A DNA stretch of 64,000 nt, from NCBI GenBank assembly GCA_963803805.1, contig CAWDOD010000002.1, positions 1,344,001-1,408,000 on the forward strand, read 5' to 3'. Below are positions 18,001 to 21,000 of this stretch, piece by piece (position 1 is the first letter of the stretch; every line of letters begins with the position of its first letter). A program made the position numbers. Source of the DNA: an uncultured cyanobacterium (lineage in GTDB: Bacteria > Cyanobacteriota > Cyanobacteriia > Cyanobacteriales > CAWCAG01).

Positions 18001-21000
18001 ATTGCTGAATTGAAGTGAGTGAGGAATAAGACAGGAAATAGCCCTAGAGCTACTTGACGAGATGGCAAAGCTAAAAGTTGCTTAGAAGTTTCAGCTTTAA
18101 ATACAAAAAATAACTTAAAACTTACTGAAGGGGGAATTACTGAATTTAAGTATATCTATTTTTTCTTATCTAGGGCTATGCTCTAAATAATTCCTGGAGC
18201 AATCAAATAAAACAGAACATTGATTAATGATCAACGATCAATGATCATTGATCATTGACCACTGCGTTATTGGCAAGCTATGAAGATTCTAGATTCTCAA
18301 GGCCGTCTGTTTGGCAAAATCAGCGTTATAGATTTAGGAGCTGCTTTAGTTATTCTTTTAGTTATTATTGGTATATTTTTCTTTCCAGGAACTTCAGGTT
18401 CGGTGGCACAAGTTACTAAAACTCAGCCAGTAGAAGTTGATGTTATTGTAAGAGGACTAAGTGTTGCTAAACCTGAAGACCTCATCCAGCAATTTAGTGA
18501 AGAGAAAACAACCAAACTGGTTATTCGCAACCAACCCTACGATGACCCTGTTGAGATTAAATCGGTTGAAGAACTAGATAGGTTAGTTATTGTGCCTCAA
18601 CCAGATGGTTCTGTGAAAGCACTACCTGATCCTCGTCAACAAGAAGATGCTCTTAATGTTGATTTATTGATGACCTTGGGCGGCAAAGCACAAATTACTA
18701 AAACAGGAGTAGTCTTAGGTCCAAACAAAATTAAAATTGGCACACCTGTAGAACTAGAAGGTAAGAATTATAACTTTAACGCTAGTGTTATTGATGTGAG
18801 GGTAGAAGAATAAAACAATCGACTTCGTAAATCACAATTTTGTTGAGTAGACAAAACAACACTTCTGTTGCTTTGTCTAAACTAAGGGGCATTTTTTAAG
18901 AATTTGTAGGTTTATTCAGTTTCCTAGTACGGCAAGTCCGTACTTTTTTTGTTGGTATAAAAAAGCTTTCTAGATACTGGTGATAACTAGAATAAATGCC
19001 CTAGTCACTTTTCTCTGACAAAAGTTTATTTATTCTCACTCTAATTTAATTGTCATAGCTATTAACCCTTGTCTGGGAAATAAAAGCGACAAATAAATTA
19101 AGAGACATTTGTTAATGTAGTGAGGGGTCTAACCCCTCTTTAAGCAAAATCTTTTTGCTTTTCTTTGGTCAAACGACCAATTAAAGCTGAATTAACTAGA
19201 GGGGAAAATTATCCGGTGTATAACCAATCTACTTTACAACATCGAAGCTCTGGGGAGGTTTTGAGTGACCAGAACATGAGTACTAATTTATCCTTCTTAC
19301 AACTAAGGAAAAAGAACCAGAAAGTATTTAATCAAAATGCTTTTAATAAGGGTGCGAATCTGGCCATGATTAAAACCAAAGAAATTAAGCTTGATCTTAG
19401 GAAACTCAAATGTTTTGAAATTGTAGACAATCAGTTTGCCCATTTAGGTCTAACTTGTGACAATGCGATCGCGATTCAAGCCTCCAACCCAGCTTTTCCG
19501 CCTCGTCAAGGGCAAATTTCCTTAATTAAACAAATCATTAGCCGTCCCCTAGAGTTGAAATTTGAGCAACCCATTAGCTTCTTTAACTGTCATGTAACTA
19601 GCTCTCGCAAAGCAGTCCTTTCTGCCTACGACAACCAGGGAGTATTAATCTCACGCTCAGAAATTCCCCAATCTAATTTAGCTGGTTCTAGTTCCCAAAT
19701 TGCGGCTAATGCCCCTCTAGAAGTGAAAGCTAGCAATATTTCTCGAATTGCCATTGATGCTTTTGACGGTCAATTAACGATCACAGACTTAAGTTTTGCT
19801 TTCTAAAGTGCGAAAATTGTTTTATATTTTCAACAGACAGGAACTGCGTAATTCTCAATTGAATTATCATTAACTACCGCAATTACTTCAGGAAACCTTC
19901 GTGACACAGCAGTCGTTCTGGTGGAAGCAACTCAATAAATTCGTCGTTCATAATTCCATTCCCAAATTGCAGCAAGGTCAACCCCCCAAAAGAGAAGAAC
20001 AAATCTTATCATCATTTTTTCTCAATCAGTTTCAGGGAGGAAGGGGCTGGTTATTATTTTTGTTGGCTATCGTAGCGATGCTGTTCTGGAATTGGAAACT
20101 GCTCCTAGCTACTGGTACTGGGGTAGGAGTAATGCTAGGTATTTATCTGTTCCAAGGGCAAAACTGGCACATCTATTGGTTAAAATTGACGCAGTTTTTG
20201 AGTGGTACTAATCGCTCCTTTACCCTAGCTGTTACTAGCGGGGGGATGGCAGCATTATGCACCTACATGGCTGCTTCTATTTGGGTTGATTCCCCAAACC
20301 ACTGGCTAGCCACAGGAGTTATTATTCAAGGTTTGGGTATCCTTCTCACTCTTGTACTTTTAGTTTGGCAAATTCTCACTCGTTACCAGGACACTGAAGA
20401 AAGTCGCTACGACAGAATCTTAAATAATTTGACTCAGCCTGATTCTCTCCAGCGCTTAATTGCTGTACGCAAACTAGCTCGTTTAGTAAAAAATCCTCGG
20501 TTTCATCAAGTTTATGGGCCTCAAGTTGCCGAATATTTCCGCTTTATGCTGGCCAAAGAAAGCGAGGAAGTAATTCGTGAAGCTATTCTAGACAGTTTAC
20601 AAATTTGGGACAATAAACAAGTATTAGAAAAAGGCCGCCAACCGTTACAAATGCCAATCAAGCTTAAACGTACTTCGGCAAGGGTAAACAGGCGAATCTA
20701 GACTAAGAGAACTCCAACAAATAAAATATCCTCACCAAGTATAAGATTTTAGCAATTAGCGACTAGCGACTAGCCATTAGCTTATCGCTTTTGGATAAGT
20801 CTTTTCTTGGCTCTCTCTAAGTATCAATGAACGGCAAACTGAAAATACTTAGTCACCTCACCCCATCATTAGAAGGATTAGGCCAAGGAATACTCCCTTG
20901 CTCTGCTAGTAAGTTAGAAACTGCTGCTGCACCGTAAAGATTGAGATGACTAGGATCGGCGAAATAACCATTTTGATTAAGCCAAATTGTACCCAGATTG

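Follow-up and report, generated by a model that had tools for sequence, protein, structure and literature searches.

A HetR-type palindrome conserved over the predicted transcription start of a beta-sandwich protein gene: a candidate repressor site in a non-heterocystous cyanobacterium

The genes hetR and patX occur in nearly every filamentous cyanobacterium, including many that never form heterocysts. What they do in species without heterocysts "remains a mystery", in the words of a 2024 article (PMC11298460). A 64,000-nt stretch of the genome of an uncultured cyanobacterium of a non-heterocystous lineage, hereafter the window, raises this question in a concrete form, since a HetR-type palindrome stands there ahead of a gene for a 196-aa protein. 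Is this palindrome a binding site of HetR, and, if so, would HetR switch the gene on, as at hetP, or off?

The palindrome is the 17-mer GAGGGGTCTAACCCCTC at window positions 19122-19138, an inverted repeat of the form GAGGGG-N5-CCCCTC to which no strand is assigned. It is the sole match to GAGGGGTCTAACCCCTC within the window, even when up to two mismatches are allowed, and occurs in a single copy in the 5,306,316-bp genome, against 7.6e-5 copies expected from base composition. The survey's finding had described a repeat identical to the HetR site of Anabaena hetP and present once in this genome, and both points were confirmed, the latter across all 5.3 Mb: the 17-bp hetP inverted repeat as quoted in a passage of PMC4192349 agrees letter for letter, and the 21-mer co-crystallised with Anabaena HetR contains the same sequence (PMC4649674). 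The hetP site is bound strongly by HetR and has been co-crystallised with it (PMC4192349, PMC4649674); in the crystal structure the contacts are the GGG-N5-CCC triplets, and 19122-19138 has this core as it is defined there (PMC4649674). As for looser matches, the 20 intergenic [AG]GGGG-N5-CCCC[TC] sites counted previously become 19 when those outside ORFs of at least 100 aa are taken, out of 30 genome-wide. The ORFs that flank other sites scoring 10 or 11 of 12 yielded housekeeping families only. A second GGGGTCTAACCCC core, at C4:225734, falls within a long methionyl-tRNA-synthetase-like ORF and was discounted as a chance occurrence.

The ORF reported downstream is present at 19165-19806. Alignment with 16 homologues indicates that the protein most likely starts at GTG 19216 and not at TTG 19165, so that the coding sequence, which is also backed by 123 homologues, an AF2 model and fold searches, would be 19216..19806 (plus strand, stop included). 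The distance to the ORF, previously given as 42 nt, is 43 nt from the start of the box to 19165, with 26 nt lying between box and ORF; from the GTG start codon the box is separated by 77 nt. The absence of a named family was upheld (no Pfam match at E up to 0.01, no NCBIfam match at E up to 0.1), as was the statement that the 123 homologues are all "hypothetical": every given name is of this kind. On the other hand, not every named homologue comes from a filamentous cyanobacterium, as had been stated, since 5 of the 80 records are titled Waterburya, Chroococcales, Chroococcidiopsis, Sericytochromatia or Actinomycetota; these five records are all MAGs and are probably mislabelled. Among the named homologues, a Spirulinaceae MAG supplies the nearest. 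Nor is the family restricted to non-heterocystous forms, as the earlier description implied: heterocystous Nostocaceae carry it, without the box.

The gene lies in a conserved neighbourhood. Upstream are an M48 peptidase gene (17151..18068, minus strand; Pfam PF01435, E 2.5e-34), found by tblastn upstream in many homologue loci, and, on the same strand as the ORF, a DUF4330 gene (18280..18813, plus strand; Pfam PF14221, E 1.1e-63), which has a homologue on the upstream side of the ORF family at 44 of the 80 named loci (tblastn). Downstream, a gene for a 266-aa membrane protein without Pfam or NCBIfam family (19901..20701, plus strand) adjoins the ORF family, on either strand, in 50 of the 80 (tblastn); in Microcoleus it is convergent to the ORF family.

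The box recurs at many of these loci. When a box is taken as a site lying 250-500 nt before the conserved domain and agreeing with the 12-position consensus in 10 positions or more, 35 of 72 loci have one ahead of the orthologue; these come from 14 of 39 genera and from 6 of 14 families. Among the named loci the count is 43 of 80. The 6 of 12 relatives reported before thus become 35 of 72 in the larger sample. Box-bearing loci include those of Microcoleus, Tychonema, Kamptonema, Lyngbya, Oscillatoria, Phormidium_A and Desertifilum. The box is absent from all 26 Nostocaceae loci, from Coleofasciculus-like lineages and from the loci of the closest protein relatives (f17 and f2), which indicates that the link between box and gene is lineage-specific or has often been lost. 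Among 27 distinct boxes the core GGG-N5-CCC (G4-G6, C12-C14) is invariant, and the 25 mismatches are all confined to positions 1-3 and 15-17; the invariant columns are exactly the triplets contacted by HetR in the crystal structure (PMC4649674). The background of sites matching at least 11 of 12 positions amounts to 11 in the 5.3 Mb of this genome and 9-37 in each of five others, and across the 80 named loci just 2 boxes lie outside the upstream zone. The frequency of the box at orthologous promoters is thousands of times above this background, and together with the invariant core its recurrence argues that the site has been kept by selection at these promoters. The gene family also follows hetR: hetR is present in 74 of 75 genomes that carry the family, which occurs in just 1 of 300 genomes lacking hetR. 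One genome (G364, 99% complete) has gene and box and gave no HetR_C match among the bases searched.

The genome studied here encodes HetR as a 299-aa ORF on contig C9 (genome G000; stretch L001, positions 1492-2391, minus strand), with a HetR_C match of 145.5 bits and an E-value of 1.9e-153 against the solved structure 3qod. In the printed alignment its helix-turn-helix stretch (RMTGHLHH-EPKRVK) is the same as in 3qod, and the DNA-contact residues are intact. Just upstream of hetR lies a PatX-like 76-aa ORF ending ...ERGSGR... The HetP family model NF037966 finds no match in the whole genome (97.4% complete), nor does the 196-aa ORF match it in NCBIfam at E up to 0.1. No box scoring above 9 of 12 was found in the stretches fetched around hetR, hetZ and the two HetZ-related genes of this genome, and none between hetZ and its upstream neighbour. 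Therefore, no second site confirms that HetR uses the motif here. In Microcoleus, a 3.2-kb stretch around hetP (L178), including about 1.5 kb upstream, contains no box of at least 10 of 12, and in three other genomes no box within one mismatch was near hetZ among the matches listed.

The position of the box relative to the promoter is informative. A terminator-like hairpin followed by a T-run (18926..18944, plus strand), the only such site in 18780-19320, is predicted to end the DUF4330 transcript; the ORF would therefore need its own promoter. A candidate extended -10 element, TG-n-TAATGT, can be read from the sequence at 19110..19118 (plus strand), with 3 nt separating it from the box. The element is weak, as TAATGT matches TATAAT at 3 of 6 positions, and a strict sigma-70 scan of 18780-19320 returned no promoter; it sits, however, where 12 of 14 genus representatives have strong GATAAT, TATAAT or TACAAT hexamers. 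In these 12 of 14, a -10 hexamer matching at least 5 of 6 positions ends 0-13 nt upstream of the box, against 3.8% at control positions, and many genus representatives have a TTGCAA or TTGCCA -35 element 16-17 nt further up. This conserved -10 hexamer just upstream of the box, often accompanied by a -35, is new in this analysis, and given its distance of 0-13 nt the box should overlap the transcription start. The putative 5′ leader beyond it (19139..19215, plus strand) is predicted by RNA folding to contain two further small hairpins.

A box over the predicted transcription start points to repression by HetR rather than activation. From the sequence comparisons we consider it quite probable that HetR binds 19122-19138 in vivo and, given binding, reasonably likely that its effect is repression. 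To the complete reading, namely that 19122-19138 is a functional HetR operator over the start of the promoter of the 196-aa gene and represses this gene while HetR is active, we give an even chance. A HetR dimer on the box would block or stall RNA polymerase at the transcription start, so that the gene would be off while HetR is active, and would be released when HetR is removed from the DNA, for example by a PatX-derived peptide. The survey's proposal of a direct HetR target gains much stronger comparative support from the 14 of 39 genera, the invariant triplets, the conserved HetR contacts and the co-occurrence with hetR in 74 of 75 genomes; the hetP-like activation that its title implied does not fare as well, since the box lies downstream of the -10 element. 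In Ca. P. alkaliphilum, the orthologue pha|02964, which has the box upstream, gave no proteome signal in four conditions in which HetR was detected. This lends slight support to repression, in a proteome of 2,127-2,658 detected proteins where hypothetical genes commonly go undetected.

Compared with Anabaena PCC 7120 hetP, the site shares the 17 bp, the GGG-N5-CCC core and the HetR recognition residues. It differs in that the gene downstream is not hetP, no HetP family gene being found in the genome, and in that the organism belongs to a non-heterocystous lineage. Furthermore, hetP is activated by HetR (PMC13342950), whereas here the box follows the -10 element and overlaps the presumed start. 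The best-studied sites, those of hetP and hetZ, are activating (PMC13342950). A further parallel may be provided by the Anabaena cases of negative regulation, alr2242 and alr3234. According to published reports HetR inhibits some genes: when hetR is mutated, alr2242 is derepressed (PMC4192349), and PMC11298460 cites Hou et al. in connection with negative regulation by HetR. Unlike the box described here, the ChIP peak at alr2242 is listed without a recognised binding site (PMC4192349, Table 1). Our comparison suggests that HetR may act here as a repressor at a housekeeping-type promoter, unlike its textbook role as activator of hetP and hetZ.

Other explanations of the palindrome have to be weighed against repression by HetR. 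As at hetP and hetZ, HetR might bind the box and activate the gene, with transcription from a promoter downstream of it. In favour of this are the identity of the site with that of hetP, the fact that sites of this kind allow HetR to activate PhetP and PhetZ, in E. coli too (PMC13342950), and the weakness of the window's own -10 ahead of the box; nevertheless, downstream of the box the window shows no suitably spaced -35/-10 pair, the scan gave no promoter, and the good -10 hexamers directly upstream in 12 of 14 genus representatives place the box over the start. We therefore hold activation to be unlikely, if the strongest of the competing accounts to be considered. Distinctly less credible is that the palindrome serves another regulator of the same specificity, HetR being uninvolved. 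Such a regulator would fit a motif that is not enriched genome-wide over a reversed control (11, 37, 14, 9 and 28 sites vs 7, 21, 18, 14 and 32), the lack of such a box at hetZ and hetR of this genome, and the case of G364. Against it stand the coincidence of the invariant columns with the HetR contact triplets, the nesting of the gene family in hetR-bearing genomes (74 of 75) and the literature examined, which names no regulator for GGG-N5-CCC except HetR.

The inverted repeat could also act as RNA, forming at the 5′ end of the transcript a stem-loop with an influence on stability, attenuation or translation. A start just before the box would indeed place the stem at that end, and the leader folds somewhat better than shuffled sequences (19118-19230: -30.1 kcal/mol, z -2.46, equalled by 3 of 200 shuffles). 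However, no pair of the box arms shows a compensatory change, 15 of 162 cells are unpaired, and variants such as GATGGG...CCCCTC and ...CCCATC break pairs on one side only, which argues that the box is kept as a sequence and not as a hairpin. In four genera, moreover, the -10 ends 0-2 nt before the box, so that the start would fall inside the left arm. No Rfam family matches in 10 homologue loci, positions 17000-21000 of the window give just a chance-level match to AbsR28 (E 0.67), and the Nostocaceae leader has no match in the supplements of the sRNA paper. We regard a role as RNA as improbable. Finally, the idea that the palindrome arose by chance, or is the terminator of the upstream gene without regulatory role, can practically be dismissed. 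With a G+C-rich 6-bp stem followed by TCTTT it does look superficially like a terminator, but an intrinsic terminator, taken as a G+C-rich stem with 5 or more T among the next 8 bases, was called by the scan of 18780-19320 at 18926-18944 alone, behind DUF4330, and not at the box; chance, with 7.6e-5 copies expected, would have to account for recurrence at orthologous loci in 14 genera.

For the protein of the presumed HetR target gene a structure was predicted. The AF2 model of the 196-aa protein has a mean pLDDT of 78.8, with residues 1-52 below 50 and 10-residue block means of 85-98 from residue 61 to 196, in agreement with a beta-sandwich preceded by a disordered N-terminus of about 52 aa. 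Over residues 54-196 the model resembles the jelly-roll fold of DUF4465/BtuJ and CBM22-type beta-sandwiches (VIA Z 12.0 to 4jqr and 11.3 to CBM22; Foldseek E 3e-5 to BtuJ1), from which it differs by an identity of just 7-16% and the lack of a Pfam match. As the survey had noted, the fold matches are generic, and our searches with the AF2 model gave the same picture: 51 chains of many different families reach Z 8 or more, with 4jqr (Z 12.0) at the top, and since the Z values fall without a break from 12 to 8 over binding modules unrelated to one another, they do not allow a ligand to be deduced. BtuJ and CBMs work extracellularly; by contrast, the published annotation of an orthologue shows neither signal peptide nor membrane helix. 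The predicted protein is a CBM-like beta-sandwich that looks cytoplasmic.

In at least six families, a HetR-type site is conserved at one identifiable gene, and its architecture is clear. It offers a defined DNA fragment, a reporter promoter and a candidate effector gene, and thus a concrete gene for probing the role of HetR in filamentous cyanobacteria without heterocysts. We found no paper describing the gene family or its association with a HetR box; Videau 2014 and Elhai and Khudyakov 2018, the likeliest places for one, lay outside the search, and an earlier description is possible. More speculatively, and we would rather bet against it, the gene family might be an ancestral direct output of a HetR-PatX switch that predates heterocysts: in non-heterocystous filamentous cyanobacteria, HetR on the start site would keep the gene off and a peptide derived from PatX would switch it on in some of the cells or under some conditions, and the promoter would have been rewired later in the Nostocaceae and the Coleofasciculus-like lineages. 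If this were true, the beta-sandwich protein would be a first handle on HetR control without heterocysts. Some of the Coleofasciculus-like lineages now have a DIF1-like TCCGGA motif, whose reader in Anabaena is the HetR-dependent sigma factor HetZ.

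The 17-bp palindrome GAGGGGTCTAACCCCTC occupies positions 19122–19138 of the window, where it is the sole match even if two mismatches are permitted, and the 5.3-Mb genome has this one copy only, against 7.6e-5 expected from base composition. As the survey had noted, it is identical in every letter to the hetP inverted repeat given in a passage of PMC4192349, which states that HetR "binds strongly" to it. According to the part of PMC4649674 describing the HetR-DNA structure, Anabaena HetR was co-crystallised with a 21-mer that contains GAGGGGTCTAACCCCTC, most contacts are made through a GGG and a CCC triplet, and the authors' consensus is GGG-N5-CCC. 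The looser pattern [AG]GGGG-N5-CCCC[TC] is found at 30 sites in the genome, 19 of which lie outside ORFs of at least 100 aa.

The distribution of this element (hereafter, box) was examined across 401 sampled cyanobacterial genomes. A homologue of the ORF lying 3′ of the box is present in 75 of them and hetR in 101; 74 of the 75 homologue-bearing genomes also have hetR, the exception (G364) being a genome whose sequence was covered in part. We scored the 750 nt upstream of 72 loci, namely the window and 71 of 78 others (L002–L072, all with E <1e-15; seven weak or second matches, L073–L079, were left out of the count), against GAGGGG-N5-CCCCTC, and called a box when at least 10 of the 12 arm positions matched. 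Boxes were detected in 35 of the 72 loci, from 14 of the 39 genera and 6 of the 14 families represented: that of the window, f3 (24/25), Phormidium_A/Baaleninema (6/6), Desertifilum (2/2), a Planktothricoides-like family and Scytolyngbya. At this threshold the same 750 nt contained no box in Nostocaceae (0/26), f2 (0/3), f17 (0/2) and five families with a single genome each. The gene family is thus not limited to non-heterocystous forms, since the heterocystous Nostocaceae also have it, without the box. Among 80 named loci, 43 carry a box, including those of Microcoleus, Tychonema, Kamptonema, Lyngbya, Oscillatoria, Aerosakkonema and further MAGs, while Coleofasciculus, Symploca, Caldora, Allocoleopsis and Potamolinea are without it; only 2 sites fall beyond the upstream zone. 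The background is low: the source genome has 11 sites with at least 11/12 matches over its 5.3 Mb, and five other genomes have 9–37 each, not above the reversed control. In a quick gene tree the box-bearing lineages are scattered over deep branches, requiring at least five changes, and the nearest relatives of the window are without a box. The box is almost certainly a selected cis-element.

Which feature of the box is kept was analysed on 27 distinct boxes, whose changes are partly common to related genomes. Columns 4–6 (GGG) and 12–14 (CCC) are invariant in 27/27, T7 is found in 26/27 and A11 in 24/27, and all 25 mismatches fall at positions 1–3 and 15–17. Our selection of sites does not impose this pattern, because the score weights the 12 positions equally. 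A palindrome could also be maintained as a conserved hairpin; however, no base pair is changed on both sides in the 27 boxes, pairing is lost in 15 of 162 cells, and shuffled sequences pair equally well, so that this explanation is unlikely. To judge from the alignment, selection acts on the sequence of the two half-sites and not on a hairpin.

Regarding the effect of binding, the survey's finding had implied activation as at hetP. Alignment of the loci on the box shows a -10 hexamer (GATAAT, TATAAT, TACAAT or CATAAT) that ends 0–13 nt before it, most often 8 nt, and in many loci TTGCAA or TTGCCA is located 16–17 nt upstream of this hexamer. A match of at least 5/6 occurs in 12 of 14 genus representatives, which are not fully independent, compared to 3.8% at control positions of the same upstream regions. 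Because the spacing varies, a composite HetR site that includes the hexamer is unlikely, and the position of the hexamer implies that the box covers about -6 to +24, counted from the start, i.e., within the polymerase footprint. Repressor sites usually sit inside this footprint. In Microcoleus a divergent hydrolase gene flanks the box on the side away from the ORF, but the -35 and -10 elements are oriented towards the ORF. In the window the candidate -10 is weaker (TG-n-TAATGT at 19110–19118) and was not called by a strict promoter scan. Overall, a box downstream of the -10 and over the start would point to repression instead of hetP-like activation and, provided that HetR binds, we lean towards the binding repressing the gene. 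A hint on expression comes from Ca. Phormidium alkaliphilum, whose orthologue pha|02964 was matched through the coordinates of the homologue in the Phormidium_A genome G008, preceded by the box GAGGGGTTTAACCCCCC. The rows concerned in supplement 1 of PMC8633866 describe pha|02964 as a 'hypothetical' gene of 591 nt without signal peptide or membrane helix and leave its abundance cells empty in 4/4 conditions, while HetR (pha|02671) is quantified in each of the four; about 2,100–2,700 proteins were detected, according to the portion of that study consulted. The empty cells are weak evidence, consistent with repression.

The genome encodes one HetR (L001:1492–2391, minus strand, contig C9), which matches the solved HetR 3qod with E 1.9e-153 and has the same recognition stretch in the alignment. 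Directly upstream on the same strand, a 76-aa ORF (L001:2640–2870) has a hydrophobic N-terminus and the motif ERGSGR, matching the patX-hetR arrangement that a passage of PMC11298460 describes for filamentous cyanobacteria. Three HetZ-type genes are present (HetZ, 552 bits; HetZ-related, 622 bits; HetZ-related 2, 616 bits), and the genome (97.4% complete) yielded no gene of the HetP family. The stretches around hetR and the HetZ-type genes contain no box above 9/12, nor does the interval between hetZ and its upstream neighbour contain one; a DIF1-like TCCGGA word precedes the HetZ-related gene by about 150 nt (coordinates for the HetZ-type genes and this word: L171:893–898, L170:955–1983 and L169, on contigs C7, C11 and C2). 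HetR is probably the protein that binds the box. The proposal that the ORF is a direct HetR target is thus supported by comparative evidence, with corrections to the start codon, the direction of regulation and the occurrence of the family in Nostocaceae. Its promoter is a new putative HetR-regulon promoter, and this gives it importance, since what HetR does in cyanobacteria that form no heterocysts is acknowledged as an open question in the part of PMC11298460 consulted. Our literature search, with Videau 2014 and Elhai and Khudyakov 2018 outside its coverage, found neither the gene family nor its association with the box in print.

Some upstream regions without a box have features of their own. 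In place of the box, Nostocaceae (L053, L047, L059 and others) have a common block some 520 nt ahead of the conserved domain, in which TTATTATC is followed after about 50 nt by a hairpin and a run of 7–10 T. The block resembles a short leader transcript or an sRNA that carries a terminator; it matched no Rfam family and was not found in the supplements of one sRNA survey. Six Coleofasciculus-like loci (L004/L097, L084, L088, L089, L091 and L107) have TTTTCCGGA at one place (-360 to -368, counted from the conserved domain), with a TAAT-rich hexamer about 22 nt later. Promoters that the HetR-dependent sigma factor HetZ recognises in Anabaena have TCCGGA as their -35 word. The TTTTCCGGA sites could reflect rewiring inside the same network, or the shared ancestry of a six-letter word.

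Other sites were also noted. A second box (11/12) is present in two Oscillatoria loci, some 2 kb beyond the ORF, at +2018 (L110) and +2059 (L117, GAGGGGTCTAACCCATC) from the conserved domain. G008 also has the exact 17-mer (L172:1501–1517) 145 nt upstream of a 70-aa hypothetical gene, pha|03313, likewise without proteome signal; its homologue in the source genome (49% identity, C2:320503–320673) lacks a GGG-N5-CCC within 400 nt upstream. Finally, GAGGGGTGTCACCCCCT occurs twice in the source genome (C2:160871 and C10:381936), and both copies follow one shared block of about 35 nt (AATGTAACTCTCCCAGTCATCAGGGTGCATCTAC), which makes up a small repeated element with no obvious relation to HetR.

The ORF itself (19165–19806) matched no Pfam or NCBIfam family, and all names given for its 123 homologues are 'hypothetical'. 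The survey's ORF exists, whereas its start codon has to be moved: the listed homologues are mostly 182–208 aa long and their N-termini align with codon 18, so that GTG 19216 is the most likely start, which would give a 196-aa protein and 77 nt from box to start. In an AF2 model built from 45 sequences, residues 1–52 are disordered and the remainder forms a confident all-beta domain (mean pLDDT 85–98 per 10-residue block from residue 61). Foldseek and VIA-align place it only in the broad jelly-roll class, resembling DUF4465/BtuJ (Z 12.0) and CBM22 (Z 11.3), followed by an unbroken list down to Z 8 with identities of 7–16%, and no function could be inferred from these searches. The gene order M48 peptidase, DUF4330, ORF and 266-aa membrane protein is kept across many genera, the last gene being convergent with the ORF in Microcoleus; in the window, the DUF4330 gene has a putative terminator of its own at 18926–18944. 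Further upstream, two plus-strand ORFs overlapping in different frames (15402–16154 and 16048–16446) may be one gene split by a frameshift or an assembly error.
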